Origin: a virus
Taxonomy: Duplodnaviria; Caudoviricetes
Strand: one strand, 5' to 3'
IMG/VR virus record: IMGVR_UViG_3300037067_015211
Span: 96,001-160,000 of that record
Length of the DNA: 64,000 nt
In this document: positions 33,738 through 59,852 of the stretch, one piece after another
How positions within the stretch are numbered: position 1 is the stretch's first letter
Layout: every line of letters begins with the position of its first letter
The notes under the pieces: generated by a model
Seen by the model: only the letters and a program-made list of their open reading frames with translations
Database searches by the model: none
Told to the model about the DNA's origin: nothing
Position numbers and translations under genes: made by a program

Positions 33738-33763
33738 GACTTTTTCCTTATTCTACTACCTGT

Positions 33764-34111
33764 CTAGTCATTTAAAAATTCTTTTGTACGACCAGTCGCC
33801 ACCCCTTCCAATAATTCCACTACAGTAGAATCTACTTGGGCAACACAATGGGGGTGACAATTCTGATTAATCCACTGAATTAGTGGCTTGGCCGCCAAGA
33901 GCATAGAATCATGTTGTTTTTTTGTTAAACGTGTATCTTCTTGTTTTCCTTTTGTTTGACTCTCTAAATCCGCACAATGAAAACAAATAACGCCCTCTAA
34001 AATATCAATTGAAATAACTTCATGCATTTCCCCAGAATTATCTGGAAGCTGAAACCAAACTTCTTTGTTTGGTAATTTTTGTAAAATTGCTATTACATCT
34101 TCTTTGTCCAT
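33764..34111 (-). CDS. hypothetical protein flanked by a duplicated junction
   Basis: Start moved to ATG 34111 (AAGGAG RBS). Confidence 0.65.
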   Translation of the reverse strand: MDKEDVIAILQKLPNKEVWFQLPDNSGEMHEVISIDILEGVICFHCADLESQTKGKQEDTRLTKKQHDSMLLAAKPLIQWINQNCHPHCVAQVDSTVVELLEGVATGRTKEFLND

Positions 34112-34127
34112 GACTTTTCTCCTTATT

Positions 34128-34499
34128 CTACAATCCAAACCCTTGCAATACATCAATAAAACCCAACTCTTTTAATCTATCCTTAGATGCATTAATTTCT
34201 GGCTCAATAAGAGGAAAATGATTGTTTGTGGCAAGAATTCTCATTCCCCACAAATCACCCAAATAACCTTGTTCAAATGTTAAAACATCATTATTTTTTG
34301 CAAAATCATTTTCACCCCAATTGCTAAAAACAGCCTGATCTTCATCGCTTACAATAAAATTAATTGGTTTAATGTTTTTGTTCAATAGACAAACATACTT
34401 TTCTGCGATAAAATCTCTAATGCGCTTATTTCTCGTTTCGCCTTTTTCTAGTTCATTTTTTGTTTCTTCTTTTTGAAAAATTTCTTTTAACGTTGTCAT
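34128..34499 (-). CDS. small protein resembling a major-capsid fragment
   Basis: PINFIV..D..F.NWG.NDF..QGYLGDLWGMRI; paralogous to both halves of 46644..47513. Confidence 0.6.
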   Translation of the reverse strand: MTTLKEIFQKEETKNELEKGETRNKRIRDFIAEKYVCLLNKNIKPINFIVSDEDQAVFSNWGENDFAKNNDVLTFEQGYLGDLWGMRILATNNHFPLIEPEINASKDRLKELGFIDVLQGFGL

Positions 34500-34518
34500 T
34501 TTTTTCTCCTTTTTTATT

Positions 34519-34965
34519 TTATTCTACAATCCAAATACCTTCGGACTTGCAATTTTGTTTGAACGTTTCCTCAAAATGATCCGCAACAGAAAAGAAATCG
34601 CAACTCGTAATCGGCACATAAATAGTCCGAACATCCTCTCCCAATTCAGCGGTCGAATTATGTTTGATGTTTTCACATGTTTCAACAACAAACATTTTGC
34701 CCATAGCAGTAGGCTGGACAATAATAAGCGGGGGTGCCATGCGGATACATCGTACAGAGTCATTGTCCAGCGCGTTACGAACAGACGGAGATGTGGACCA
34801 TCCATAATACTGGAAGCTACGATTACGGATCATAACCACAAAAGCATTCTTGGGCTTTTTAACTATAATCCCGCCCATCTCCTTAAACTGTTCCATGTCA
34901 TTAATCGCAGAAAAGTCAATCTTCTCGTCCTGCTGGTCTTCCACGGCTTTCTTAAACTTAGGCAT
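34519..34965 (-). CDS. hypothetical protein
   Basis: AAGGAGG RBS, 148 aa. Confidence 0.7.
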   Translation of the reverse strand: MPKFKKAVEDQQDEKIDFSAINDMEQFKEMGGIIVKKPKNAFVVMIRNRSFQYYGWSTSPSVRNALDNDSVRCIRMAPPLIIVQPTAMGKMFVVETCENIKHNSTAELGEDVRTIYVPITSCDFFSVADHFEETFKQNCKSEGIWIVE

Positions 34966-35398
34966 TTAATACCTCCTTTAAAATAATTTCCATCAATTGT
35001 TGTTTGTCTTGTCTACCCGAAGATTCCAAAAACTTCTCTATCGCCTCTTTGTCCGATAGTTCAGCTTTTATTTCCTCATTTCTCTTCGGTCTCTCCTGTA
35101 CAACGATAGGCGTTATTTCATTGCAATGATATGACTCCTTAAAACAACTTTTCAAATAATCGAAATCAATTCCATGTAACTGTTCTCCACTTACCTTAAT
35201 GTTGCATTTTACTATTTTATCCTTAAAATTACCGGCTTTCAAGCTTTTATAGGTTTCTTTTGCTTTCTCGGGATCAATAATAAAATTCAAGTCTACAACT
35301 ACAAATTGTTTGTTCTGCACCGACAAATAAGAATAATCTTTAACTTCTTCAGGTGTTGCATTTCGTAGATTAATGTGTGTCGCCGCTTTTTTAAACAT
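34958..35398 (-). CDS. SbcD/Mre11 C-terminal part encoded separately
   Basis: FVVVDL..KDKIVK.NI..LSDKEAIEKFL directly after the nuclease domain; own GAGG RBS. Confidence 0.6.
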   Translation of the reverse strand: MFKKAATHINLRNATPEEVKDYSYLSVQNKQFVVVDLNFIIDPEKAKETYKSLKAGNFKDKIVKCNIKVSGEQLHGIDFDYLKSCFKESYHCNEITPIVVQERPKRNEEIKAELSDKEAIEKFLESSGRQDKQQLMEIILKEVLNA

Positions 35399-36128
35399 TT
35401 AAGACCTCTGCATATTCATACAATATTACACCCTTCTTATCATTCACTTCAGAGGCATCCACGTATACAGGAGCACCTACAATCGTCACCTTGCCAATGT
35501 CCTGATGCTTGTGAATATGGCCGCAAAATACTTTGACCACATTTTTATCGTTAATGATCGCCCTTGGCAATGTAAATCCATGATTTGCCAACATGGTATC
35601 TTCCGTACCGGCTACTGCGCCTTCTATTTCAGTGTGGGCAAATACAATGATTTGCTTGTTTTTATCTCGCTCTTGCCATTTTGCCAACGTTACGTCCGCT
35701 GGTTTTTGCCCATCATATTTGGCTTCGCTAATGTGTGGGACAAAAAAGAAATCACATGTTCTTGTGGGTAAAATCCCCGGTTCATCTACTATACAAACAT
35801 ACTCATACAAAATTTCTTGCACCACCGATAAAGTATGATTATGTTCTTCTTCTTCATCTTTTCTGGAAATCTCGTCATGATTCCCAACCAAGAAGAAAGA
35901 CTGTATTTTAGCATCATCTAATGTATTGCAAAGCGTAATAAACTCCTTCACTCTTTTCTGGTGTGTAATCACATTTCTATGATACACGTCTCCGCAATGA
36001 ATGAAGTAGTCCACTTTATTCTGAATGGCAATGTCTACGATATTATTGCATGTGTCAATAATATCGTTACGCTTCAAATTACCGCTAGTTAAATACCAAT
36101 GCCAGTCAGATGTTATTAGAAGTTTCAT
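35391..36128 (-). CDS. sbcD: SbcD/Mre11 metallophosphoesterase nuclease domain
   Basis: TSDWH, CGDVYH, VGNHD, FAH, CGHIH. Confidence 0.9.
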   Translation of the reverse strand: MKLLITSDWHWYLTSGNLKRNDIIDTCNNIVDIAIQNKVDYFIHCGDVYHRNVITHQKRVKEFITLCNTLDDAKIQSFFLVGNHDEISRKDEEEEHNHTLSVVQEILYEYVCIVDEPGILPTRTCDFFFVPHISEAKYDGQKPADVTLAKWQERDKNKQIIVFAHTEIEGAVAGTEDTMLANHGFTLPRAIINDKNVVKVFCGHIHKHQDIGKVTIVGAPVYVDASEVNDKKGVILYEYAEVLNV

Positions 36129-36143
36129 TTACTCTTTCTAATA

Positions 36144-36356
36144 TTATTTTTCAGAAAGCGACTCTTCTTTGAATCTACATTCTTCAAGTCTTAAAAAACA
36201 CATATGCCCATTTTTATTGGCATGCCTTTTCAAGTCTCGCCTAAACAATAAACACATATTATGTTGTCCAAGATTAAATTCACTGGGATAAAAAGTACAC
36301 TTTTTATCACACACAAAAAATTCTTCATTTCGATAATTTACCTTTGCCTCATACAT
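36144..36356 (-). CDS. hypothetical Cys-containing protein
   Basis: 70-aa ORF, overlapping start. Confidence 0.55.
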   Translation of the reverse strand: MYEAKVNYRNEEFFVCDKKCTFYPSEFNLGQHNMCLLFRRDLKRHANKNGHMCFLRLEECRFKEESLSEK

Positions 36357-36621
36357 CTTTTTTCCTTTCCCGATAATTCTTTTCCAAATTCATCCACATT
36401 TTAGCGGAAACATTTGTCAATTGTTCCAATCGTTCCGCAAATTCTTGCGTAATCAATAACTCGCCACTGACAAACTCGTTTAATTGTTTGCCAGATAAAC
36501 CCAAATATTTGCAAATATATTCTTTTAACCAACCGTATTCTTCCCATATTTCATAGAATGTTTCTCCCGGGGCAACTGCATAATCGGGTTTATATTCAAA
36601 CCTCTTTTTCTTCTTCGGCAT
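36349..36621 (-). CDS. HigA/VapI-like HTH antitoxin-type protein
   Basis: PDYAVAPGE..LGLS..LNEFVSG..IT.E.A.RLE..SAKMWMNLEKNY. Confidence 0.75.
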   Translation of the reverse strand: MPKKKKRFEYKPDYAVAPGETFYEIWEEYGWLKEYICKYLGLSGKQLNEFVSGELLITQEFAERLEQLTNVSAKMWMNLEKNYRERKKDV

Positions 36622-37840
36622 CCTTAGTCACTTTCGGCATTCTCTTCTTTTCCTTCAGCGTACCACTCTCGTCTTCTACCAAATCAGGAGGCAATTCATC
36701 GGGGCCAATATCCTTGCCATCGTCCTCTTGAGTATAGCAACTATTTGCGGTCGATTTTTCCCAATACTTTTCGATCTCTTCCGCTATCTTCTGCATAGCC
36801 TCTGGATTTTCGTTCAGCCATTTCCTAAGCCGCTTCTCGCCATCCCACTTTTGATCTTCCCCCAACAGCTTACAAAAATGAGCAGAACCAGAATTGGTAA
36901 TGATACCCTGAATCTTTGCCTCTCTTACAATCGTCCTAGCCGCATCGTAACCAGCTTTAGGCTCATCCTCACCACGACCAGTACAAGTATAGAAGTAGGC
37001 AACCTCATTGTCAACACCAATCTTGCTCTTCATCACAATCATTTGGTGCTCTTTGCCTAGCCGCACTTTATTATCATCACCCTGTTTAATATTGCCACTC
37101 CACGTTACTCGAATTCGCAAAGAATTATCAAACTGCAAAGAATTTCCACCAGCCAGTTTCCATTTAGGCTCGTATAGGCTGGCCCCAATATTTACCACTT
37201 CTTGTTGAAGAACAATAAAAGCAACATTATGTTTGCCAATAAATGGTGTTAGCTTGTCCAGCCATTGAGAAATGAGTCTGGCCTGATTGGCCATTCTCTC
37301 TTCTTTAATCTTCATGTCCCTATCAATACCCTTTTCACACTTTTTGCCAATCACAGACTCTTCTGGAATCAGCTTTTTTAGAGTATCGACAATAACACAA
37401 AGCCAATTGTTCTCCTGCCAATCCGCTGGCATTGCCGCATACTTATTAAATACCTTATCGACCTTTATTGCACAATCTTCTAGCGTATCTGGCCGAATTA
37501 CAAACAACTTCTCAATATCTACGCCAAGAGCAACAGGCCAATCCTGCTCCAAAGTGTGCTCGGCATCCACATAGGCAACCATATGGCCTTGTTGCTGAAA
37601 ATCCTTGGCCAGTATAAGGGCCAATGCAGACTTTCCAGCCGCATTAGGCCCATGAATACATGCCATACGACTAAGGGGAAATCCACACAACGGCCCCAAA
37701 GCCCTATTTAGAGAAGGAACAGAAGTTTTAAGCACCTTGAATTTTGGAATATCGTGCAAAAAGTTTGTGCCCTTAATCTCTTTTACACAATTTGCCAAAA
37801 AATCTACCGTACCAGCAATATCGCGCTTTCGCTTGCCCAT
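36596..37840 (-). CDS. recA: RecA/UvsX recombinase
   Basis: GPNAAGKS, YVDAEH, LGVDIEKL, VIVDT, QARLISQ, GGNSLQFDNSLRI, KSK. Confidence 0.9.
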   Translation of the reverse strand: MGKRKRDIAGTVDFLANCVKEIKGTNFLHDIPKFKVLKTSVPSLNRALGPLCGFPLSRMACIHGPNAAGKSALALILAKDFQQQGHMVAYVDAEHTLEQDWPVALGVDIEKLFVIRPDTLEDCAIKVDKVFNKYAAMPADWQENNWLCVIVDTLKKLIPEESVIGKKCEKGIDRDMKIKEERMANQARLISQWLDKLTPFIGKHNVAFIVLQQEVVNIGASLYEPKWKLAGGNSLQFDNSLRIRVTWSGNIKQGDDNKVRLGKEHQMIVMKSKIGVDNEVAYFYTCTGRGEDEPKAGYDAARTIVREAKIQGIITNSGSAHFCKLLGEDQKWDGEKRLRKWLNENPEAMQKIAEEIEKYWEKSTANSCYTQEDDGKDIGPDELPPDLVEDESGTLKEKKRMPKVTKDAEEEKEV

Positions 37841-37853
37841 TTATTTGCATCCT

Positions 37854-39440
37854 TTAGAATGGAATATCAGTAATTTCTGCACCACACGAAGAACACTCGG
37901 TGTCCGTAATCCGATTTTCGGCCCCACATTCTGAACATGTTACAATTTCATCATTTTCTTCTTTTTTCGGTGTTGCCTCAGCCTCTTTTTTCTTGCCAAA
38001 AAGCTTCTTTCCCTCTGCCTTGGCTTCTGTCTTAGCCTCTGGCTGTGCCGCTGCCGCTTCTTGCTTGGCTCCACATTCCGGACAAAACTTTGCGCCCTTT
38101 ACGTCTACTCCACACTTAATACACCCAGTTGCCTGAACTTGCTTTTCTACTCTCTTTGCCCCACACTCTGGACAAAACTTTGCCCCGCCCATGTCCTTAC
38201 CACACTGAACACAAGCATCATCGCTAGACCCCTGTACCGCCTGTTCCTTCTCTACGGCCTTCTCGGCGGGTTTCTCGGCAAACTCATCTGTGTCCTCATC
38301 ATAAGATGCACCACTATCCTTGGCATCTGCCTTAGGTCTCTTGGCAACGCCAATGGCAATTCTAAGTTCTTCGTCACCACCATCAAATACCGTTTTATCG
38401 GTAATGGCAAGAGCGTCCCAAATACCCTTGTCTACAAGAGCATCCTTTACCAGCCGATTCAAATATTTTGGCGCAATCGGACGAATAAACTTAATGGTTT
38501 CCAACTCTTCATCAATGGCTTGCAAAGCCGTAGCAGAAGGCTTTTCCTTTACACGACGTTCCACACCGTACTTCTTTTGTGGATTTCGTTCTGCTTCATT
38601 GTACTTCAAAATATAAAGATGTGGATTCTTATCCGGATCTCCTTCTTCTCCCAACTCGACCTTTCCCTTTTCCACCATCTCAAAAATATCACAGCCCAAC
38701 TTGTAAGGAAGCCTTACAAGTTTAAGCTTAGACTCTTCTCGCAAATCCACCACCGGGAAAAGCCATTCGTGTATTTTATACTCTTCTCCAGACGGTTTAC
38801 CAATATTATGCTTGTAGGAATTCTTCTTGTCATCAGGGTCTACCCATGTGCCAAGAATTTGAACCTTGGTATACCGTTGAAACAACTTCTTATCGCCACT
38901 GTAATAAGGCACTTGCAAAACAACTTCATCATCTGCAATTTCAGAAGAAGACGCCAAATATCTGTATAACTGTGTGTAAGCACAATTAGCACCATCAGGC
39001 ACGTTATACGTGTTTGTCAAATCAGTGCTGGGGTGACAAAATGTTTGCACCATTACGAAATCAAATGTGCCGCCGCCCTTTTCTTTCTTCTTCTCACCAA
39101 ATACACGTACTGGAAATTTTACCGTCCAATACTTTTGGATATCCGAATTTCTTCCAAAGTAAACTCGTAATTCACCCTTGGCCTTAAAATCCGTTATCAT
39201 TCTTCCACCAAGATTCGACTTCACATCATCCTGATAACCATCAACTGCTTGTCCAAACTTTCTGCCCATTACATTTTCTCCTTTATTTTGTTTAGTGTAT
39301 TCTACTATCCAATTTTTACTTTTGCAATAGTTAATTACTTTTTTTTCATCCCAACCAATCATATATTTTATGATCGGAGCCGCTATATTACTTTCTAAAT
39401 CTATCCCAGCTACAAAATGATTTGCAGTTATTCTAAGCAT
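37854..39440 (-). CDS. putative ssDNA-binding protein with three zinc ribbons and DIPF tail (main start likely 39269)
   Basis: C-terminal ITDIPF; three CxxC..CxxCG ribbons; AAGGAG RBS before ATG 39269; adjacent to recA. Confidence 0.65.
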   Translation of the reverse strand: MLRITANHFVAGIDLESNIAAPIIKYMIGWDEKKVINYCKSKNWIVEYTKQNKGENVMGRKFGQAVDGYQDDVKSNLGGRMITDFKAKGELRVYFGRNSDIQKYWTVKFPVRVFGEKKKEKGGGTFDFVMVQTFCHPSTDLTNTYNVPDGANCAYTQLYRYLASSSEIADDEVVLQVPYYSGDKKLFQRYTKVQILGTWVDPDDKKNSYKHNIGKPSGEEYKIHEWLFPVVDLREESKLKLVRLPYKLGCDIFEMVEKGKVELGEEGDPDKNPHLYILKYNEAERNPQKKYGVERRVKEKPSATALQAIDEELETIKFIRPIAPKYLNRLVKDALVDKGIWDALAITDKTVFDGGDEELRIAIGVAKRPKADAKDSGASYDEDTDEFAEKPAEKAVEKEQAVQGSSDDACVQCGKDMGGAKFCPECGAKRVEKQVQATGCIKCGVDVKGAKFCPECGAKQEAAAAQPEAKTEAKAEGKKLFGKKKEAEATPKKEENDEIVTCSECGAENRITDTECSSCGAEITDIPF

Positions 39441-39985
39441 TATTCAAAATTTCTGATTCGCTCTCGCAAATTAAATTCTCTTGCTGTTAAATTCTTCCAC
39501 AATTCCTCAAATAATCCACGATATTCCTTTAGCCGTATTGTCTTGTTTTCTATCTCCCAATACTCCGTACCCTTCTCCGCGCACAACCATTGAGTAAATT
39601 TTTCCTGATATGCACTCCAATTCTTGCTAGGACTCATGTGCGTTATCTCTTCAAACTCTTTGCCCCAATGCCAAAGCCTCTTATTACACTCGAATCTATG
39701 CTTTTCTCGCTCCCGACAAGCCACTATGTATATCTTGTATGCATCCTGTTTGGCCTTGCTAATATAGGACAATTGTGCCATTACTCCATGCTTATCCAAA
39801 TAAGCAAAATCTACTTCTAGCGCGGATTTTAAAGCCTCAAAATCCACTTGTAGCTGAGCCACTTGTAGTTCACGCTCAACCTGCTCATATGTACAGGAAA
39901 GAAACGGCTTATCCTCTACGGTTTCTTTCCTGACAACACTATCCTTTTCTTTTGAATAGTAGTTTGCCGCTTTTTTGAACTGCAT
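39440..39985 (-). CDS. hypothetical helical protein (possible recombination mediator)
   Basis: Start moved to ATG 39985 (MQFKK, AGGA RBS); function inferred only from position. Confidence 0.55.
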   Translation of the reverse strand: MQFKKAANYYSKEKDSVVRKETVEDKPFLSCTYEQVERELQVAQLQVDFEALKSALEVDFAYLDKHGVMAQLSYISKAKQDAYKIYIVACREREKHRFECNKRLWHWGKEFEEITHMSPSKNWSAYQEKFTQWLCAEKGTEYWEIENKTIRLKEYRGLFEELWKNLTAREFNLRERIRNFE

Positions 39986-40871
39986 TACTATTCCTATAAA
40001 TAAAATCGCCCCTAGCCTGACTGTAGGCTTTCTTGTCCTGCCAATCAATATCATCTCTTAAAAACTCGCTTGCCCTTGCCTCAATTTCATCTGCGTAGGA
40101 TACAATATCAGCTTCAAATGTCTTTGGCGTAGTAACCGCACCCCATTCTGGTTTGTGCATATGAGAAGCAATTACGTGCAACAACTCCAAATATTTGTAT
40201 TTCAATTTCATTTGATAGCTACCAATAATCATACACGCAAACAATGGATGCCCAATTAATTTCTCATGTTCATTGTAGTCTATTGTACCATCTTGGCAAT
40301 CGTATGTAAACATTTTTCCGATATCGTGCAATAAAGAACCCACAATAATCAGGTCCATGCTAAATTTATTGCCGTCCATCAAACCAAATTGTTGCGCCAA
40401 CGAAACAGAAAAGGCACAAACTCTAACAGAATGTTCAAACAACCCGCCTAAATATGCACCATGCATAACCTTTGATGCTGGCCAGTTCATGAATTTTTCG
40501 CCATGATCGGCAATAAAAGCAGACATCAAGTCCACATATTTTTTTACAGTAATTTGAGAAACAAAACCATCAAACATTCCTTTGTACATCACCCTCTTTT
40601 CTTCCGGTAATGAAGGAAGAAATAACGATCTGTCTATTTTTTCTTCGACCAACTTATAGTCAAGCACCACGTATGAAGGTCGTCCATTGTAATCGTCTGC
40701 GATTAAATTCACATCAATTATTTGATGATTTTTTACCGACAAGTCTTTTTTGTCCGTATCCCAAAGCTTTGCATTTATTTTCTTGCGCTCTTCGGTAAAT
40801 AGATCGAGCACCACGTATGGTTTACCATTCTTGGTAGTATTCGATAAAATATTATTAATGATTGCCAGCAT
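39939..40871 (-). CDS. YhaM/Cbf1-like OB-fold + HD-domain 3'-5' exonuclease
   Basis: TKNGKPY..AKLWD; PAS..MHGAYLGGLFEHS; LLHDIGK; LIGH; HVIASH; YADE. Confidence 0.9.
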   Translation of the reverse strand: MLAIINNILSNTTKNGKPYVVLDLFTEERKKINAKLWDTDKKDLSVKNHQIIDVNLIADDYNGRPSYVVLDYKLVEEKIDRSLFLPSLPEEKRVMYKGMFDGFVSQITVKKYVDLMSAFIADHGEKFMNWPASKVMHGAYLGGLFEHSVRVCAFSVSLAQQFGLMDGNKFSMDLIIVGSLLHDIGKMFTYDCQDGTIDYNEHEKLIGHPLFACMIIGSYQMKLKYKYLELLHVIASHMHKPEWGAVTTPKTFEADIVSYADEIEARASEFLRDDIDWQDKKAYSQARGDFIYRNSNAVQKSGKLLFKRKG

Positions 40872-40906
40872 GTCGTTCCTCGACTTATGTGTACAATTCT
40901 ACCAAA

Positions 40907-43900
40907 CTATTTTTGCACTTGCAACACTTTTTCGCCTTTATTTTCCCTATTCTTTTTCCAAATATTTGCCCAACCATTATCCTTTATTTCTACCTTGATT
41001 GCAACAATATTCCCGATTACTAAATCTTTTTCGTGTAATTTCATGCTGTCATTCCAAAGGGGAACCCGCATTGATTCTACACCATCGCCTATCGTAAGCC
41101 AAATAAAATCATCGCCTTTGGATGTTTTTGACCTTTTAATTTCCTCTATCTGGGCCAGCACATACCACTTACCGGCCTCGCCTTTTATTGTACTCGGCAA
41201 CTCCCATTGCTTTTCTGCCACAAGATGCATATATTTTTCTATTGGATGCGGTTTAAGACTATACTCGTATAGTTCTGTTTCAATCTGTCTTTTCTTTTCC
41301 TCCGAATAATCTTCTATTTCTTTTTTCTGAATATCCTTTTCAAAGGCATCTACAAATATTGGCAACATGTCAGATGAAACTGGGGCTTTCCCGCCGTCCT
41401 TAAATACTCTTTTAGCATTTGCCCTATTAATATAAAGGGATTCTAATGCCCCCACATCGATTAATGCTTCAATTACATCACTCGATATCCCAACGCCCCT
41501 TCTGTTTGTGCGCAATAAAAAATCACCAAATGATTTGAAAGGCCGTAGCTTTTCAATCGCATAAAAAGCCGTGTTAACGCCCTTCACAAACCCTAGCCCG
41601 AGTCGTATTTTTCCATCTTCTATTGTATGGCCAAAGCCACTTTTGTTTATATCCAGTGGCAAAAATTCTAGGCCCATCCTCTTGGCTTCAATAAAATATT
41701 TTGCATGATTTTTAATCTCGTTCATGCAACAAACTAAAAATTCCACAGGATAATGCACCTTCAGCCACATACAAAAATAGCTAATAATGGAATATGCCGT
41801 AGCATGAGATTTGTTGAAGATATAAAGACCGCAATTTTCTATACTATCCCAAATTTTTTGCACCAAATCGGGAGCAAATCCATTTGCCAACGCACCATTA
41901 ATAAAATCATTTTTCCTTTTAGATAGCACATTTCCCGCGCCAGTCTTTTTTGCAATATCTTTTCTAACTTGATCGGCCTGAGCCATTGTCATACCGGCAA
42001 TTTCACGGCACAATCTCATCACTTGCTCTTGATAAACTAGAATACCATGAGATTCTTTTAAGGTTTCTTCCGTATTAGGCAGACATTTCATATCGCCAGA
42101 GGTATAATTTTTTACAAATCCATCTACGTCTAATCCCGGACGAATAATACTGATTAGTACAGGGATATCTGTAAATGTTTCTAGCTTCCCTATTTTTTTC
42201 AGGATAGATGTAGTGTTGTGGTTTTCCATCTGAAATACGCCGATTGTATTGCCCTTGCCAAACTCTTCAAATATTTGCTCATCGGCCTCCATATCCAGCT
42301 TGTACAAATCAGTGTATTGTTTTCCAATCATATTGCATGTTTGAATAATGGCCGGTAAATTAGAAAGGCCCAGCACGTCTAGCTTTAAATACCCCATTTT
42401 TTCCAGCCAAGTTCCTTCATATGATGTAATGATTTCATTGGAAACTTTTGCTATGGGCACCGCATCCTTGTCGGGCAAAATAGCTATACCAGAAGCGTGG
42501 GTAGAGTTGCCTCGTATTTTACCACAAATAACCATTGCATAATCGTATGCTTTTTTGAATGTGGAGTCGTTATGATATTTTTTCTTTACCTCTTCGTTTT
42601 CATTTAACTCTTCTTGCAAAGAATCTGTAGAAAAAGACTTGGTAATATTCTGTTCCGACATGGGCAGACCGAAAAACCTAAATGAATCCTTTAGGGCCAT
42701 CCTTGCCGCACACTGAAGAAATGTACCAATTTTGACTACCTTATCGCCATATTTACTGGCCAACAACTCACAGGCTTTTGTTCTATCGGAATAGTCAATA
42801 TCGATATCGGGCAATGATACTCTATCTGGGTTGATAAACCGCTCGAAATAAAGCCCGTATTTAATGGGATCTACCCTTGTGATATCCAAACAATATGATA
42901 CTAAACACCCTACTGCTGACCCTCTGCCCGGCCCCGTCTCTACGCCATTCTCGTGCATATGTTTTACGACATCGGCAACGAGAAGAATATACTCTACAAA
43001 TCCATTTTTTTCGATAACCGACACTTCATTTTTTAGCCTATCTAAATACTGTGCAGATTTATTTTTGTCAATAAAACCATCTGCAATAAGTCTTCTGAAG
43101 CCCTGCATAGTACGACTTTTAAATTCATGCACCGTATCAGAATATTCCATTTGGAACATCTTCAGCTTTTTGTCAAAATCAAAGTTTTCCACCTTCTCGG
43201 CTATCTGGCTAGTGCTTGCAAATAATTTGTCGAGCGTCTTGGCGTCTACCTCGTAACCGTAAATTTTGCTATCTGCTCTAATTTGTCTTTCACCCTTTAC
43301 CCAAAGTTCTTTGCCGCCGTCCCCCATTGTCTCGCCAGTTTGCCGTAAAGCCTCTTCTGCTTTTTCCAAAGTCTTATATTTTCTCAAAGCATAGGTATAG
43401 GCGTAGGTATTAAAATCTTCCTTTGTCCTATAATGAATATCGTTCGTAACGACTGGTTCTATGCCCAACTTTTCTGCCAGCACAAGAAGGGCACGATTTA
43501 TTTTCTTTTGTCTTGGGATTTCGTTAAACTGCAATTCTAAATAGAAGTCGTCTCGAAAGATATTCTTAAACTTCATTGTCTCGGCCAATGCCAAATCAAT
43601 TTTGTCCTCACCTATTAATCTAGGGATATACCCTTGTACACAGGCCGAAAGGCAAATTAGTCCTTCAGAATACTCGGCAAGTTTTTCAAAGGTGACACGA
43701 GGGACATAATAAAAGTTTTCTCTGACCGCCCAGTTATTTAGCTTTACTAGATTCCGATACCCCTGCAAATTTTTGCACAATAGAACAAGGTGGTAGTTAT
43801 CTTTAACCTTATCTCCGCCTACGGTGAAATAAGTTTCTATCCCAAGGATAGGCTTTACGCCATTTTCTTTTGCCTTGGCATGAAATAGTGGTAGGCCGCT

Positions 43901-44032
43901 CATTGAGCCATGATCGGTCAATGCCATAGCGGTAGATTTAGCCAACATACAAGCTTCGATGTATGTTTCTGGCGGCATTAACCCATCAAAAAAGCTATAG
44001 ATTGAATGGGCATGTAATGGGGAAAACATCAC
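40907..44032 (-). CDS. dnaE: DNA polymerase III alpha subunit
   Basis: PHP HAHSIYS/TDHG/NDIHY; GPGRGSAVG; FERFINPDR..PDIDID; HASG; KLDVLGL; YQEQVM; FNKSHA. Confidence 0.97.
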   Translation of the reverse strand: MMFSPLHAHSIYSFFDGLMPPETYIEACMLAKSTAMALTDHGSMSGLPLFHAKAKENGVKPILGIETYFTVGGDKVKDNYHLVLLCKNLQGYRNLVKLNNWAVRENFYYVPRVTFEKLAEYSEGLICLSACVQGYIPRLIGEDKIDLALAETMKFKNIFRDDFYLELQFNEIPRQKKINRALLVLAEKLGIEPVVTNDIHYRTKEDFNTYAYTYALRKYKTLEKAEEALRQTGETMGDGGKELWVKGERQIRADSKIYGYEVDAKTLDKLFASTSQIAEKVENFDFDKKLKMFQMEYSDTVHEFKSRTMQGFRRLIADGFIDKNKSAQYLDRLKNEVSVIEKNGFVEYILLVADVVKHMHENGVETGPGRGSAVGCLVSYCLDITRVDPIKYGLYFERFINPDRVSLPDIDIDYSDRTKACELLASKYGDKVVKIGTFLQCAARMALKDSFRFFGLPMSEQNITKSFSTDSLQEELNENEEVKKKYHNDSTFKKAYDYAMVICGKIRGNSTHASGIAILPDKDAVPIAKVSNEIITSYEGTWLEKMGYLKLDVLGLSNLPAIIQTCNMIGKQYTDLYKLDMEADEQIFEEFGKGNTIGVFQMENHNTTSILKKIGKLETFTDIPVLISIIRPGLDVDGFVKNYTSGDMKCLPNTEETLKESHGILVYQEQVMRLCREIAGMTMAQADQVRKDIAKKTGAGNVLSKRKNDFINGALANGFAPDLVQKIWDSIENCGLYIFNKSHATAYSIISYFCMWLKVHYPVEFLVCCMNEIKNHAKYFIEAKRMGLEFLPLDINKSGFGHTIEDGKIRLGLGFVKGVNTAFYAIEKLRPFKSFGDFLLRTNRRGVGISSDVIEALIDVGALESLYINRANAKRVFKDGGKAPVSSDMLPIFVDAFEKDIQKKEIEDYSEEKKRQIETELYEYSLKPHPIEKYMHLVAEKQWELPSTIKGEAGKWYVLAQIEEIKRSKTSKGDDFIWLTIGDGVESMRVPLWNDSMKLHEKDLVIGNIVAIKVEIKDNGWANIWKKNRENKGEKVLQVQK

Positions 44033-44039
44033 TCTCCAG

Positions 44040-45143
44040 CTAGGTCAAACAAACACACACATTAAAACATTTTTCATCTTCCGACATAAACAAAATCTTT
44101 GTTCTGTCTTTTTTCACAAAAAATCTAACACTCTCTTCAGCCTTGTAGTTTCCCACAAGATAACTCAAATGATTTGCCACTACACCAATTTCTATTTCCT
44201 GTACATCGGACACGATGGAACAATCAACCAGTTCCACCACATCGCAGTTTGATTCCGCATTCGTAATTTCCATTTCAGTCGGAGTAATCTTGATTTTAAT
44301 CTTCGCCTTTCCCTCTCCGTCCTTTACTACCTCCAGCCTCGACAGCGCATCCAGTAGAACGTCAGGGGCCACACTTACTTCAATTGTGTTTGTCAATTCC
44401 TTATTAAACTTTACCGCATTTTCTAAATCAATGTATTTCTCGTATTGTGCGGCCAAGCGTATAGCACGTAGCACGAAGTTCCCATAATACACGTAAATGA
44501 ACTTCTCGTCAAGCCCAATCTTGTATGGCTTGACCTTATATTTCTTGATGAATTCAAATAATTGCTTATGAATAGTCAGTTCATCAAAAAATTTGTCATC
44601 CTTGGCGTCAAACTTATATTCAGAGATGATGTAAGTATTTGATGCGTATCCCTTACCGTTTTGCACTCGTATTCCAAGCAAAGATGGTTTGGATGCTTCA
44701 AACACACTTGACGCTCTGGCTCCGTCCAAAAAGTTCAGGCCCGTTATGAAGTCCTCGGGCACCAAACAAAATTGTTCTGGTTCTTTGTATGTCAGGATTG
44801 CCGTTGCTTCGTGCAATGAAAAGCGACTCCGTGTTTTTTCACATACAATTGTAAGGTTGTTCTCATTTAGGGCAAGCTTCATCTTCTCCGCGACCTTCAG
44901 CTTTTTTACCAAAGATGCAAGAAGTTTGCCGTCGATGGAGAAGTTTCTATCGAACAAATTATTTTGGAACGAGAAAATCGCACTAAACGAATCGTCCCCT
45001 GCGATTACTTTATTTTTGTCAAAAAATCGTAAACACTTGTACTCTTCCACATTCGTTCTGGATGGAATGAAAGAAGATAGAACTTCAATCATATTTGTAA
45101 ATTCAGACACAAACACTTCTTTTTCATTTATTTGCTTGAACAT
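44040..45143 (-). CDS. dnaN: DNA polymerase III beta sliding clamp
   Basis: 367 aa, three-domain pattern (L.G+....G..YASN..; LLDALSRL; EIGV..NHL), adjacent to dnaE. Confidence 0.75.
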   Translation of the reverse strand: MFKQINEKEVFVSEFTNMIEVLSSFIPSRTNVEEYKCLRFFDKNKVIAGDDSFSAIFSFQNNLFDRNFSIDGKLLASLVKKLKVAEKMKLALNENNLTIVCEKTRSRFSLHEATAILTYKEPEQFCLVPEDFITGLNFLDGARASSVFEASKPSLLGIRVQNGKGYASNTYIISEYKFDAKDDKFFDELTIHKQLFEFIKKYKVKPYKIGLDEKFIYVYYGNFVLRAIRLAAQYEKYIDLENAVKFNKELTNTIEVSVAPDVLLDALSRLEVVKDGEGKAKIKIKITPTEMEITNAESNCDVVELVDCSIVSDVQEIEIGVVANHLSYLVGNYKAEESVRFFVKKDRTKILFMSEDEKCFNVCVCLT

Positions 45144-45146
45144 GTT

Positions 45147-45551
45147 TTACACTTCCATAATCTTTTCGTCGTTATAAGTGCCGCTTTCATAAACACCATT
45201 TGTTGCATCTTCAAACTCAACTGTAATCGAAAAAGAAATCCCAGTCATAAAATTATTGATCCTAGTATAGAGCGTATTTGCCAACCTCTCGGGGGTGGGG
45301 TTGCCCATAATGGGCATGGCCACGCTCTTATCGGGCGGATTTTGATCCTTTGCATTATGAAGTGTTTTGCCATCCCAACCTCGAATGACGGGCGTTACCC
45401 TCTGCCAAACGTCCTCTTGGACAATTACATCGTTATGGGCCGGTGATGCCGCCTTGGCCGTAACAGAAATTACTGCAATACGAGAAACACCATCTTCATT
45501 GATCTTCTTCGTCTTGCAACTAACGCGAAACCTCTTTGTGCTCAGGTACAT
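45147..45551 (-). CDS. degenerate QueD/PTPS-like T-fold protein
   Basis: TKRF.., WDGKTL, NPTPERLANTLY, VEFED; catalytic His motif missing. Confidence 0.55.
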   Translation of the reverse strand: MYLSTKRFRVSCKTKKINEDGVSRIAVISVTAKAASPAHNDVIVQEDVWQRVTPVIRGWDGKTLHNAKDQNPPDKSVAMPIMGNPTPERLANTLYTRINNFMTGISFSITVEFEDATNGVYESGTYNDEKIMEV

Positions 45552-45901
45552 TTTAACAACCTCCTAGTTAATTGATTTTTTAAAATAAGATCGACAACCA
45601 CCTTCTTTTTACCGGCCAATGTCCTATCTCTTCGAACAACATCATTTACCAGCCTAAACGTCACACCGTCAACTTCAAATAAATTTGGTGGCGTATCCTT
45701 CAGCGGGGGAATCGCCATTATCATATGATCCTTTACGGATATATAGTACAATAGCGATTCCCAAAACCTAAGCCAGCCATTATTCTCGAACTCACCCATA
45801 ATGGCCCTACAAATATTCAGCCGTCGTTCATCCTTGGAGTTTTCGAGCAGTCCATTGAACGAACGAATAAACCGCCAAACCAGTTTGTTACTTTTCGACA
45901 T
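45542..45901 (-). CDS. hypothetical protein
   Basis: 119-aa ORF overlapping neighbours. Confidence 0.6.
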   Translation of the reverse strand: MSKSNKLVWRFIRSFNGLLENSKDERRLNICRAIMGEFENNGWLRFWESLLYYISVKDHMIMAIPPLKDTPPNLFEVDGVTFRLVNDVVRRDRTLAGKKKVVVDLILKNQLTRRLLKCT

Positions 45902-46622
45902 TCAAAAGACTCTTCAGTTGTGCAACCGTAAGCGTGATTGACATATCGTCCGTCAAAACATCCGACAGCCACAATGATTTTCCAGTTTTAACTTCTTCTT
46001 TATCCTCTTTTACCGCCTTTTCCTGCACAACTACTTTTGTGTCATTGGCAAGAACTTGCTTTGCTACATCCTCAGACACTCCAATTGGAGCAGATGATTT
46101 TACTTCCTTAGCAACAGGCTTTTCTGCCGCAAGTTCAGGGATGTCCTTTTGCTTTTCCTTCGCCAATTCCGCCGCCAACCTCTTCTGATCCTCAATGATC
46201 TGTTCCTTTGTGCGCCTTTTACGTCGTTTTTTGGGTTCTTCGGGCTTAGGCGCATCATCCAAATCACCCATAACCTCCATCTGTTCCTTCTGTACTTCTT
46301 CCACAGTAGGTTCTTTCACAGGCTCAGGCTTTTTGTTCATGTTGTTGCCACAAAACACACAAACTATTACTTCTTCCGCCTTGTTTTCTTTCTCTTCTTC
46401 CGGCTCTGGGGAAGGCATTTCTTCAAGACAATGCGGACATTGCACTATGTTGTAAACCTTCGGATCGTAATACGTAAGAGCATCGTGCAATAAAGATGCA
46501 ATATGTTTGTCGTCCATTTCTTCCGGCTTGACAATAATCGCACCCTTTGCCTTTACAAAATCCTCGTCTCCATTAAGATAATCAATTGCCGCCCTCATCT
46601 TTTCTCGGTCATACGTTGCCAT
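45888..46622 (-). CDS. hypothetical protein with zinc ribbon and KRRKRRTKEQ basic motif
   Basis: CPHC..CVFCG; low-complexity linker. Confidence 0.7.
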   Translation of the reverse strand: MATYDREKMRAAIDYLNGDEDFVKAKGAIIVKPEEMDDKHIASLLHDALTYYDPKVYNIVQCPHCLEEMPSPEPEEEKENKAEEVIVCVFCGNNMNKKPEPVKEPTVEEVQKEQMEVMGDLDDAPKPEEPKKRRKRRTKEQIIEDQKRLAAELAKEKQKDIPELAAEKPVAKEVKSSAPIGVSEDVAKQVLANDTKVVVQEKAVKEDKEEVKTGKSLWLSDVLTDDMSITLTVAQLKSLLNVEK

Positions 46623-46643
46623 AGTTCTTTTCTCCTTCTAAAA

Positions 46644-47513
46644 TTATTTTATACCCAACTGCTGAAGTCGTTCATCTGAAACATTAATTTCCGGCTCTGT
46701 AACCGCGTCATTACTGTAAACCTTCATGCCCCATAGCTCTCCCAAAAACCCTTGATTGTAATATTTTTCTTCGTTGCGGCCAAAATCACCTTCATCCCAA
46801 TTGTCAAACACAATACGGTCACTATCATTTACCACAAAATTATTCGGGGATATGTTTTTATCAATCACTTTAGTAACTTTTTCACAAATATATTCTCTAA
46901 CTCTTGTGTTACGAATTTTATCTTCTTGTTCTTTGGTTAAGCTATATTTTGAAATATATTTGTCAACATCTTCTTTGGAAACCTTAACCCTTTCATATTG
47001 TTCATGAATATCCTTCATTGGCGTTAAAAGCTTTTTATCTTCATCAAGCCTAACGCCCTTCATTCTTTGAGAAAATTCATTGTCACACTGCTCGGCCACC
47101 TCATCTGATGGGTCATCATTATCTATGAAACAACCAAAGCCAAGTTGTTTCATTCTTTCATCCGATGGATTTATTTCCATTTCTTTCATAAGTCTAGTTG
47201 GGACTTGAAAAACTCGTATATCACCAAACAATTTGCCCATATACCCACATCTGATTTGAGATGTTTTTAGGCATCTTTTAAAGTTTGTTAAACCAAAAAC
47301 AGTAAGAAGGTAAGAATAGTCTAACGATGGAATAAAAAGCCTAGTAGCCCTTTCCCCTGTTTTTTGAAAATATTCTTCAAGTTTACCAGAAAGATATTCA
47401 AGAACTTTTGTATCTTTTATATTTGCTGTTTCCCCCTCTAAAAGTGATCTAACATACCCAAACTTTTCTGCATCATTAATTTTTTTGTTGTATAAATCAG
47501 CTAAAATACCCAT
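46644..47513 (-). CDS. protein with two tandem capsid-fragment-like domains
   Basis: GYMGKLFGDIRV..EINPSDERMKQLGF and GFLGELWGMKVYSN..EPEINVSDERLQQLGI; start ATG 47513. Confidence 0.65.
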   Translation of the reverse strand: MGILADLYNKKINDAEKFGYVRSLLEGETANIKDTKVLEYLSGKLEEYFQKTGERATRLFIPSLDYSYLLTVFGLTNFKRCLKTSQIRCGYMGKLFGDIRVFQVPTRLMKEMEINPSDERMKQLGFGCFIDNDDPSDEVAEQCDNEFSQRMKGVRLDEDKKLLTPMKDIHEQYERVKVSKEDVDKYISKYSLTKEQEDKIRNTRVREYICEKVTKVIDKNISPNNFVVNDSDRIVFDNWDEGDFGRNEEKYYNQGFLGELWGMKVYSNDAVTEPEINVSDERLQQLGIK

Positions 47514-48108
47514 CTCTTTTCTCCTTCTGTTAATTTTGTGCAAACAACACTTCTTCTAAAACATTATCAACCAACTCGGCCAACAATTTTTCTTTTTGCA
47601 AAACAATAGAATATGGATAAACATAGGACAATTTTATCGCCAAATCAATCTGTTGTTTTGATGAGGCCGTTTTACAATGAAAAGGATCGCCCTTAACGAT
47701 AGTGCCCGTTAAGAAATCTTCCAATGTCCTTATAGCAAGACCCCAATTTGACGTTCTCTCTTCCTCTTCTTTTTCTTGGCCCAAAATAATTAGAGCCAAT
47801 TTATTTTTTGTTTCTCTACTAACCTCATCGGATAAAAAAATATTTTTAATTAACTTGTTAATCAATTCCGATATTATTTTAAATTTACTTAGTGTGCTCG
47901 GCGGGTAATTTTCACAAAGATATTTTACCAAATCAAAACTTGAGTCGTTCCCAGCAGACAATGTTTTTTCCAACACAGCCAATGTTTTTGTGGCAACTGG
48001 CCCATCTGCGCTTATTTTATCAAACGCAAGCCTATTGAAAAAATTTAACACAACAATCATTCCATCTGAATTATTGTTATCCATCTCTTTTCTCCTTCTG
48101 TTAATTTT
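47510..48108. repeat. 28-bp perfect direct repeat (47510-47537 and 48081-48108) containing RBS and ATG
   Basis: ccatctcttttctccttctgttaatttt at both positions. Confidence 0.95.
47530..48084 (-). CDS. hypothetical protein between the 28-bp repeats
   Basis: Start ATG 48084 after AAGGAG. Confidence 0.65.
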   Translation of the reverse strand: MDNNNSDGMIVVLNFFNRLAFDKISADGPVATKTLAVLEKTLSAGNDSSFDLVKYLCENYPPSTLSKFKIISELINKLIKNIFLSDEVSRETKNKLALIILGQEKEEEERTSNWGLAIRTLEDFLTGTIVKGDPFHCKTASSKQQIDLAIKLSYVYPYSIVLQKEKLLAELVDNVLEEVLFAQN

Positions 48109-48112
48109 ACCC

Positions 48113-48140
48113 ATCATACCACATCTAATTAAACTTGCAA
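48113..48140 (-). promoter_or_regulatory. sigma70-like promoter
   Basis: TTGCAA-16 nt-TATGAT with TGn extension. Confidence 0.55.
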
Positions 48141-50594: not shown

Positions 50595-51050
50595 TTATAA
50601 ATTTTCGTATATTAATTTATAATCATTTTCTGGGCCGCTCTTCAAACCAACACTTCTTAAAATATGTGGCCACTCACTATCTTCATTAATATTAAAAAAA
50701 TTAATACTGTCACTCCATTTCCCGGTAATTTTTTCAATAAAGCATGGCCTACACTTGCTTTGTAAAATATTGTTTTTCATAATAATGTCCGCCTGTGTCA
50801 TAACATCAAATTCCCTTGCATTTTCACAATATGAAGTTGATGTTCCAAAATTAATTTTTATACCAAAAATTTCAAGCTTTTCTACAACATCAGGCGACAA
50901 AAAATCTCTAATATTAAACCAAATATCTTCTGCAATCCACAACTCTTCAACTTTAATATCGTTGCTATCATAAAATTTTATAATGTCTTTTATTGTTTCC
51001 AATATAAGATGTTTTGATAATTTAATTGATTGAAATTCTGATAACTTCAT
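50595..51050 (-). CDS. hypothetical protein
   Basis: 151 aa; ELWIAEDIW..LEIFGIKI weakly like the capsid-fragment family. Confidence 0.6.
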   Translation of the reverse strand: MKLSEFQSIKLSKHLILETIKDIIKFYDSNDIKVEELWIAEDIWFNIRDFLSPDVVEKLEIFGIKINFGTSTSYCENAREFDVMTQADIIMKNNILQSKCRPCFIEKITGKWSDSINFFNINEDSEWPHILRSVGLKSGPENDYKLIYENL

Positions 51051-58637: not shown

Positions 58638-59852
58638 TTATAGAAATCTTAGCTTCTTGTTTGTTTCCTGCTTCTCAGAGACAACTTGCTTAGACTCTTT
58701 CAAACCTAAGTATTGGTTATTCTCTCCACAGGCTTTAATTCCCGTAGAACTTACGGTACTGTATTTTTCTAGGTTAATAGCCGCGCTTAAATCCCGGTCT
58801 ATTTCTAATCCACACGATTCACACTTGTAGATTCTATCAGCTAGTGTTAGCCCCTTTTTTATATTGCCACATCTGCTACACTTCTTGCTAGATGGATAGA
58901 ATCTATCTACTACGACAATCTTACAATTATACCACTCAGCCTTGTATTCAAGCTGTCTCCTAAATTCAGCCCACCCCACATCAGAAATAGCCTGAGCTAG
59001 GCAGTGGTTTTTCATCATATTAGAAGGAGATAAATCTTCTATGACAACTCTTGACTTGGTTTTCGTCAAATATGTTGTTAGTTTATGAAGAGTATCTTTT
59101 CTAATACACGATATCTTATAGTGTAACTTGGCCAATCGTTTTCTAAATTTTTCTTTATTCTTGCTTCCTTTCTGTTTCTTACTATGTTTTTTTTGCAGTC
59201 TCTTTAGCTTTTTCAAATTCTTTTTAAGAGGTCTAGGATTTTCCACCACCACGCCGTCTGAACAAACCGCTAGTTCTTTTAACCCCAAGTCAACTCCTAC
59301 TGTGCCTTCTCTTGATTTAAAAGAAATTCTCTTGGATATATCGAACGAAATTGCAATAAACCACCTACCAGCCCTTTCTGATATAGTGGCTTGGGTTATT
59401 CTTAGATTAGTTGGTATGTATGACTTTTCTTTTAATCTTACTCTGCCAATTCTAGGTAGCTGAATATACTTGTTATAGGCATATATTGAACCATCTAGTG
59501 TAAAACTTCCTAGTGCATTTTTCCGAGATTTAAATCTCGGAAAGCCCTTTTTACCCTTCTTTTTCTTCTTACAATTTCTAAAGAAATTCTTATAGGCTTT
59601 TTCAAGATTTATTAAAGCAATTTGAGGGGCACATTTTGAAGCTTCATACATCCACGGAAAGTCTGTTTTCTTAAGTTTAACTAACTCTTTATGTAGATCA
59701 TAGGCAGTTAGAAACTTATTGCCATTCTTTTTATTTTCTACTTGTCTACCTAATCCCCAATTGTAAGCAAACCTAGCTATCCCACTGTGCTTGACCAGAA
59801 GTGTTCTTTGCTTATTGTTAGGCTTTAGCTCTATCTTAAAACTTTTTCTCAT
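58638..59852 (-). CDS. tnpB: RNA-guided endonuclease TnpB
   Basis: ARFAYNWGL, GFPRFK, VGVDLGL, VVIEDL, FYPSSKKCSRCG, CESCGLEIDRDLSAAINL. Confidence 0.95.
   Translation of the reverse strand: MRKSFKIELKPNNKQRTLLVKHSGIARFAYNWGLGRQVENKKNGNKFLTAYDLHKELVKLKKTDFPWMYEASKCAPQIALINLEKAYKNFFRNCKKKKKGKKGFPRFKSRKNALGSFTLDGSIYAYNKYIQLPRIGRVRLKEKSYIPTNLRITQATISERAGRWFIAISFDISKRISFKSREGTVGVDLGLKELAVCSDGVVVENPRPLKKNLKKLKRLQKKHSKKQKGSKNKEKFRKRLAKLHYKISCIRKDTLHKLTTYLTKTKSRVVIEDLSPSNMMKNHCLAQAISDVGWAEFRRQLEYKAEWYNCKIVVVDRFYPSSKKCSRCGNIKKGLTLADRIYKCESCGLEIDRDLSAAINLEKYSTVSSTGIKACGENNQYLGLKESKQVVSEKQETNKKLRFL

Follow-up and report, generated by a model that had tools for sequence, protein, structure and literature searches.

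The window analyzed here is the 64,000-nucleotide (nt) stretch made up of bases 96001-160000 of IMGVR_UViG_3300037067_015211, a 212,568-bp IMG/VR virus genome from an uncultured phage that is estimated to be 95% complete. It contains two genes, P0001 and P0002, which encode one and two copies, respectively, of a repeated unit of ~90-110 residues, and the unit descends from a single domain of the major capsid protein (MCP) that the same phage encodes elsewhere. Neither gene belongs to the head-morphogenesis module. Their neighbors are instead the genes for a primase, a processivity factor (clamp), the alpha subunit of DNA polymerase III (Pol III alpha), RecA, and an SbcC-like protein, and ~54 kb separates them from the MCP and the rest of the head module. 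The coordinates of the genes, their units, and the flanking repeats are collected in table 1.

Several comparisons establish the relationship among the copies. P0001 and the C-terminal third of P0002 are 46% identical over 91 residues (E = 2e-28), and the N-terminal unit of P0002 is a weaker third copy, with E values of 7e-7 to P0001 and 5e-8 to the C-terminal unit of its own chain. A previous reading of this DNA from its sequence alone (hereafter the sequence-only reading) had placed a ~90-residue domain once in the first gene and twice in the second, and these values bear it out. The same reading had suggested that a distant fourth copy might lie at 50595-51050. We rejected that open reading frame (ORF) as a member of the family, because its BLASTP E value is 1.4 and the family profile scores it at only 5.3 bits (E = 1.3), a level within noise.

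When the three units of this phage are aligned with two units of an orthologue, 16 columns are invariant, and half of these (8) fall in a C-terminal motif, E-x-E-I-N-x-S-x-x-R-x-x-x-L-G, that is invariant in all five units and that the MCP does not have. The motif occurs in no other protein among the 1362 ORFs of the genome, and Pfam, PHROG, PDB, and the Atlas offered no lead to a known binding module for it. The possibility that the motif is a sliding-clamp-binding peptide was also considered and rejected, as it is a poor match to the QL[SD]LF-type peptide and the segment aligns with a strand of the MCP. Searches of Pfam and PHROGs with P0001, P0002, and P0003 gave no match at E<0.05.

The MCP itself was reached through the small proteins. 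When P0001 was searched against all six frames of the complete genome, an additional match was returned outside the window, a 294-residue ORF (G000:C1:197512-198396, minus strand). Because this ORF matches phrog_2522 'major head protein' (E = 5e-26) and PDB 6wkk_A 'Gp27 major capsid protein' (E = 1e-22, aligned residues 13-256), we identify it as the HK97-fold MCP of the phage, of the phage G gp27 type. By BLASTP, the MCP and P0001 are 33% identical over 81 residues (E = 2e-12), and the MCP also matches the C-terminal unit (E = 5e-11, MCP residues 164-224) and the N-terminal unit (E = 5e-4) of P0002. A hidden Markov model built from the five small-protein units only and run against the 1362 ORFs recovered the MCP at E = 8e-11, and the next-best ORF had an E value of 0.56. 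In the reverse direction, a phmmer search of the genome with the MCP as query matched only the two small genes. Furthermore, hhalign of the fragment profile with a four-member MCP profile gave a probability of 96.8% (E = 2.7e-10) and paired fragment residues 27-100 with MCP residues 163-235. Together with the structural model described below, these results agree with the proposal, made in the sequence-only reading, that the core matches the axial segment of HK97-fold MCPs. Alignment with the phage's own MCP, which had been named there as a check, shows the units to be homologous to MCP residues ~163-235.

The copies have kept different parts of the ancestral segment. C-type units retain the V-V-N ... 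F-x-x-W-x-x-x-D-F-G-R stretch of the MCP, N-type units retain its Q-[VI]-P-T-R-[LI] stretch, and no unit has lost G-x-[LM]-G-x-L-[WF]-G, which is also in the MCP. Such mosaic retention of MCP features fits the prediction of common descent. We conclude from these alignments that the ancestor of the repeated unit was the A-domain segment (residues ~163-250) in the MCP of this same lineage. The direction of descent is from MCP to fragment, because the segment is integral to the fold in the distant phage G protein as well. What the units have in common with the MCP of this phage (gp27 type, PDB 6WKK; PHROG 2522) is the A-domain helix, a strand, a second helix, and the G-x-[LM]-G-x-L-W-G strand. 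The small proteins differ from it in that they have an additional helix at the N-terminus and the new, invariant motif at the C-terminus and are encoded in a replication operon.

The similarity is specific to the MCP of this lineage, because the fragment profile reaches neither 6wkk nor phrog_2522. P0001 and P0002 gave no match to phrog_2522 at E≤1 and matched no Pfam capsid family; in a search of the PDB with the fragment-only profile, no capsid was matched and 6wkk was not reached at E≤10. The top rows of that PDB search (stathmin, AFG3L2) had E>0.2 and were taken as noise. The alignments cover only residues ~163-235(-250) of the 294 in the MCP, that is, ~30% of the protein. Given that P0001 and P0002 do not match the MCP profile, do not contain the complete fold, and are not located in the head module, they are not members of the MCP family but descendants of one MCP domain. 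The match of the MCP to phage G gp27 suggests a large-T-number capsid lineage, which is thinly covered by profiles. As to the rest of the head module (L003, G000:C1:196225-199413), the 149- and 132-residue ORFs upstream of the MCP gene and the 379-residue ORF downstream of it have no PHROG match. The 132-residue ORF is Lys/Glu-rich in translation, and a scaffold role for it would be a guess.

Structural comparison indicates which part of the capsid fold the unit represents. An AlphaFold2 model of P0001, obtained from a nine-row alignment that included MCP segments, has a predicted local distance difference test score (pLDDT) of 72.5 and a predicted template modeling score (pTM) of 0.63 and consists of a small alpha/beta core preceded by a long helix at the N-terminus. 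In an exhaustive comparison of this model with VIA-align, ~35 of the top 50 rows were HK97-fold capsids or encapsulins, and the best row was T4 gp24 (1yue_A) with a Z score of 4.9, which no other row exceeded. The model aligns to residues 250-331 of HK97 gp5, which form its A (axial) domain, and many other capsids are likewise matched in their A-domain region. On the basis of these alignments the matched MCP segment (residues ~163-235) corresponds to the HK97 A-domain. A Foldseek search of the PDB and BFVD returned no row at E<0.1, and its lists were enriched for capsids; a shape search of the Atlas returned the capsid families PF25209 and PF07068 as well as some small viral proteins without an assigned function; and a feature search of the ESM Atlas, with scores of at most 0.85, was uninformative. 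Similarity to HK97-fold capsid domains, on which the sequence-only reading depended, was thus found at the level of both profile and structure (Z≤4.9). Because the Z scores are modest and the Foldseek E values are not significant, we regard the structural evidence as supportive and not as independent proof, and it is the sequence statistics that carry the capsid claim. The prediction of a complex between the MCP and P0001 scored 0.00 with a poorly folded partner and counts neither way.

The unit is without the N-arm, the E-loop, the spine helix, the P-domain sheet, and the C-terminal strands of the A-domain. Since these elements are missing, it cannot be a subunit of the lattice or shell.

Orthologues of P0002 are present on short metagenome contigs at 80% (L005/L006) and 92% (L014/L015) identity. 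The ratio of nonsynonymous to synonymous substitution rates (dN/dS, Nei-Gojobori) for P0002 is 0.17 between the window and L005, 0.09 between the window and L014, and 0.23 between L014 and L005. These ratios are alike in the N-terminal unit, the linker, and the C-terminal unit, and the synonymous excess is significant (Fisher p = 1e-20). The corresponding value for the MCP, compared with a 93%-identical MCP from the same samples, is 0.07. Among paralogous C-terminal units, the first 65 codons have omega values of 0.23-0.47, and in the last 32 codons, which encode the glycine-rich strand and the family motif, there are 0-1 nonsynonymous versus 4-8 synonymous changes, one of the counts being 0 versus 8. 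All of this points to P0001 and P0002 being working accessory genes under purifying selection. The known distribution of the family is narrow: a phmmer search with P0001 of 1.8 billion representative proteins returned only P0001 itself and the P0002 orthologue cluster, GenBank phages searched as DNA and by tblastn contained no match to the family, and scans of IMG/VR with P0001, P0002, the MCP, and the family alignment found no relatives.

The sequence-only reading had also noted that both genes sit beside duplicated junctions containing a ribosome-binding site (RBS). This was confirmed in the form of a perfect 17-nt repeat at P0001 and a 31-nt repeat, 97% identical between copies, at P0002, and relatives of the phage suggest what these repeats do. 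Copies of the 17-nt repeat bracket P0001. In the relative L012, whose RecA is 87% identical, the 148-residue gene is followed directly by a homologue of the 149-residue gene, P0001 and the 115-residue ORF are both absent, and the junction TTTGGATTGTAGAATAA is single at this empty site (L012:3040-3130). The 31-nt copies bracket the 184-residue ORF, which is absent from this site in the relative L005, where the P0002 orthologue directly adjoins the primase stop and the promoter. A further relative, L014 (L014:1-1183, JGI Ga0265297_10103131; L015:1-915), carries a second family gene in tandem, upstream of its P0002 orthologue. The 97 visible C-terminal residues of this gene are 72-77% identical to the C-terminal unit, and the tandem joint lies in the shared RBS AGAAGGAGAAAAGA, with the same joint in a second assembly. 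The last ~110 nt of the upstream copy are ~96% identical to the downstream gene and the remainder ~75%, which suggests that the gene was duplicated in tandem at the RBS and that the copies then either diverged or underwent gene conversion at the 3' end. An assembly chimera is an unlikely source of the tandem, as the copies differ even in their shared 3' part and the only shared joint is ~20 nt long. The second assembly has the same junction with an upstream-specific variant, and the two assemblies may share reads.

Based on the comparisons with L012, L005, and L014, we conclude that the short conserved stop/RBS/start junctions act as recombination joints at which cassettes, members of this family included, are inserted, deleted, and duplicated. 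Junction recombination seems to be a general route of gene gain and loss in this phage group. The family itself grew by duplication, which produced the two fused units of P0002, the dispersed unit P0001, and the tandem extra gene of one relative. Its behavior is that of an accessory family, with presence and copy number varying among close relatives (L012, L014) and a neighboring cassette that is also variable.

Table 1. Positions of the A-domain-like genes, their repeated units, the flanking junction repeats, and other features (window coordinates unless prefixed G000:C1)
Feature	Position	Strand	Remarks
P0001, 123 residues	34128-34499	-	Single unit: N-terminal helix, MCP A-domain-like core, and family motif
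P0001, MCP-like core	34197-34424	-	Residues 26-101
P0002, 289 residues	46644-47513	-	Two units
P0002, N-terminal unit	47109-47426	-	Residues ~30-135; most diverged copy; domain independent E value (i-E) 3e-49 to the family profile (by construction)
P0002, C-terminal unit	46647-46961	-	Residues ~185-289; nearest to P0001 and the MCP
17-nt direct repeat TTTGGATTGTAGAATAA (coding strand)	34519-34535		3' end of the 148-residue gene just upstream of P0001
17-nt repeat TTTGGATTGTAGAATAA	34123-34139		3' end of P0001; supplies its last codons and stop
115-residue ORF	33764-34111	-	phrog_16206 (function unassigned); second cassette inserted with P0001
Junction, third, partial copy	33741-33756		After the 115-residue ORF
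184-residue ORF	47530-48084	-	Matches neither Pfam nor PHROG; inserted downstream of the promoter and upstream of P0002
31-nt stop/RBS/start junction, copy 1	47507-47537		Immediately 5' of the P0002 start
31-nt stop/RBS/start junction, copy 2	48078-48108		5' of the inserted 184-residue ORF
Sigma-70-like promoter	48113-48140	-	TTGCAA, 16 nt, extended -10 TG-n-TATGAT; follows the primase stop and precedes the operon headed by P0002
IS605 OrfB/TnpB copy	58638-59852	-
IS605 OrfB/TnpB copy	G000:C1:10535-11797
IS605 OrfB/TnpB copy	G000:C1:3056-4295
IS605 OrfB/TnpB copy	G000:C1:51472-52710

The surroundings of the two genes bear on when they might be expressed. The region has a G+C content of ~37%, and nearly all of its genes are on the minus strand. 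Both A-domain-like genes lie inside a replication/recombination module at 30-52 kb of the window that encodes an SbcC-like ATPase, RecA, a calcineurin-like phosphoesterase, an HD-domain protein, Pol III alpha, a DnaG-type primase, and the clamp, which matches phrog_947 (E = 1e-20). Further ORFs of the module look like two methyltransferases and one dUTPase, as judged from their translations alone. P0002 is co-oriented with the genes for primase, clamp, Pol III alpha, and RecA.

The sigma-70-type promoter that the sequence-only reading had placed upstream of one of the genes stands in part. The site agrees with the consensus at only 9 of 12 positions, and such matches are common in AT-rich DNA (74 found vs. 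57 expected). On the other side, the 36-nt block that holds it is identical in L005, where the flanking coding DNA has a dS of ~0.6, and similar TTGCA/extended -10 (TGnTA) sites precede other genes of the genome. Because of this conservation and these parallel sites, and despite its unremarkable score, the site is a plausible promoter for host RNA polymerase, serving an operon that would start with P0002 (or with the inserted ORF) and run into the zinc-ribbon, clamp, and polymerase genes. This operon is likely to be read before the head genes.

Some other genes of the region deserve brief mention. Directly after P0002 lies a 244-residue gene (45888-46622, minus strand) encoding a CxxC...CxxC zinc ribbon with a long Lys/Glu-rich tail, and it keeps this place after the P0002 orthologue in the relatives L005 and L014. 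Between the RecA gene and a 204-residue ORF (39440-40054) is a gene for a 528-residue protein (37854-39440, minus strand) with three C-terminal zinc-ribbon units, two of them derived from a 67-nt imperfect tandem repeat (38057-38213); apart from the ribbons, it belongs to no known family. The genome also carries four scattered copies of an IS605 OrfB/TnpB (Cas12f-like) gene, one of them apparently split and three of them mutually 84-87% identical.

What might a phage gain from a free A-domain? Three structurally different bacterial sensors, Avs7, Avs8, and Avs10, bind the capsomer-forming face of this domain (PMC13581612). We tentatively favor the hypothesis that P0001 and P0002 are soluble A-domain mimics that compete for a binder of the A-domain, most likely a host capsid sensor, an account that is possible and that we would not call probable. 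The sequence-only reading had raised early decoys for capsid sensors, and alternatively dominant-negative capsid poisons, as what the proteins could be. Our preference follows from three considerations: the domain that was copied is the one that sensors bind, the genes behave like accessory conflict genes, and the operon is likely read before the head genes. According to this hypothesis, the two proteins would be made before, or apart from, head assembly and would mimic the capsomer-forming A-domain of unassembled capsid protein, thereby occupying a protein that otherwise binds that face. The likeliest partner would be a capsid-sensing immune receptor of the host, either Avs7/8/10-like or a functional analogue. 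A mimic that binds the sensor without the rest of the MCP, which drives activation, would be a competitive decoy, and the two-unit P0002 could add avidity for an oligomeric sensor. A broader version holds that phages duplicate their own MCP A-domain into early soluble mini-proteins that jam Avs7/8/10-type receptors, that the decoy is kept current by duplication at RBS junctions and by cassette exchange, and that huge phages have a more widespread habit of this kind, so far undescribed, of which the present case is one example. We regard this broader version as doubtful.

Among described systems, the protein DSAD1 is a precedent for a phage protein that competes with a structural-protein trigger, in that case for the sensor DSR2, and the likeness to P0001 and P0002 is one of proposed logic, namely a phage protein that occupies a sensor recognizing a structural protein (PMC11087589). 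DSAD1 competes with a tail-tube trigger for DSR2, whereas sensor binding by P0001 and P0002 is here only proposed. Closest among the described analogues are full-length MCP paralogues, for example the T4 vertex protein gp24 (PDB 1YUE), a diverged duplicate of the MCP (gp23) that was kept for a separate job. However, gp24 is a full-length HK97-fold subunit of the shell encoded by a head-module gene, whereas P0001 and P0002 are isolated A-domains, single or in tandem. DSAD1 is not known to derive from the tail tube protein. The Gol peptide of T4 gp23, which acts in Lit/EF-Tu exclusion, shows that a host defense protein can be engaged by no more than a short stretch from within an MCP. The Gol peptide differs in that it is part of the MCP gene and a trigger, whereas P0001 and P0002 are separate, selected genes. 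A literature search that fell short of all journals found no paper on stand-alone MCP-domain genes or capsid-derived decoys.

Several observations weigh against the decoy hypothesis. P0001 and P0002 are only ~33% identical to the MCP, and their most constrained block includes the motif that the MCP lacks; therefore, the function under selection may not depend on likeness to the MCP at all. A free A-domain could trigger a sensor as readily as block it. The early timing is drawn from a promoter-like motif and gene position only, and the family has been seen only in this phage and its close relatives, which form one small clade. The structural models are also less than ideal: that of P0001 is moderate in confidence and had MCP rows in its alignment, the single-sequence Atlas model is poor, and the AlphaFold2 model of P0002, with a pLDDT of 50, is unusable.

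The invariant motif is the starting point for a different explanation, in which the A-domain core does no more than provide a scaffold for folding, whereas the motif docks onto a partner in replication, recombination, or host takeover that is unrelated to capsids. The absence of the motif from the MCP, its invariance in five of five units, and the lack of any amino-acid change where synonymous sites have changed are what this exaptation would predict, and P0002 does point in the same direction as the genes for primase, clamp, Pol III alpha, and RecA. However, no other protein of the genome has the motif, and neither Pfam, PHROG, PDB, nor the Atlas leads from it to a binding module. Furthermore, because its position and its L-G-[FVI] end align with the MCP strand that follows the A-domain, the motif may be merely a diverged MCP segment. 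Such an exaptation seems to us a somewhat doubtful account.

Alternatively, the fragments could bind capsid protein itself in one of two roles. As a holdase or regulator, they would cover the A-domain face of freshly synthesized MCP until scaffold and portal were in place; as a dominant-negative poison, they would act on the capsomers of a co-infecting relative or satellite. The unit does derive from the domain that makes intra-capsomer contacts, two units in one chain could mimic two neighboring subunits, and few parts of the family are as constrained as the G-x-[LM]-G-x-L-[WF]-G block that it has in common with the MCP. We nevertheless consider capsid binding unlikely, as the genes are 54 kb from the head module and in a replication operon, P0001 is dispensable in a relative (L012) with near-identical gene order, and the surfaces have diverged to ~33% identity with the phage's own MCP.

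It is quite improbable that P0001 and P0002 encode minor virion proteins, that is, small MCP-derived decoration or inner-shell pieces located on or under the centers of capsomers and encoded away from the head module. Some large phages do encode virion proteins of this kind outside the head module, there are MCP paralogues with specialized roles in the capsid, and one of these, T4 gp24 (1yue_A), is the top structural match. Against this, every capsomer-linking element is missing from the unit, gene presence and copy number vary, and the gene lies in the replication operon, behind a sigma-70-like promoter. Finally, the notion that the genes are functionless debris of partial capsid-gene duplications, which would account for the short direct repeats that bound the cassettes and for the confinement of the family to a small clade, is strongly disfavored, as it is contradicted by the selection data (dN/dS of 0.09-0.23 over all parts vs. 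0.07 for the MCP), the intact reading frames, the strong RBSs, and the invariant family-specific motif.

The case described here is that of an MCP paralogue of which only the A-domain remains and which has been redeployed. Its practical limits are that the phage is uncultured and that the family is very small. If P0001 and P0002 are decoys, they would represent a counter-defense that copies the very epitope for which the host looks. Its targets would be sensors whose structures were not defined until 2026, and the two proteins would be an immediate reagent for determining how A-domain sensors tell "bound" from "activated." The comparisons with relatives also show a simple mechanism, recombination at conserved stop/RBS junctions, by which gene cassettes are inserted and multiplied in a large phage. 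Regardless of what P0001 and P0002 turn out to do, one domain of the most conserved virion protein has been excised, duplicated, and put to a new, selected use.

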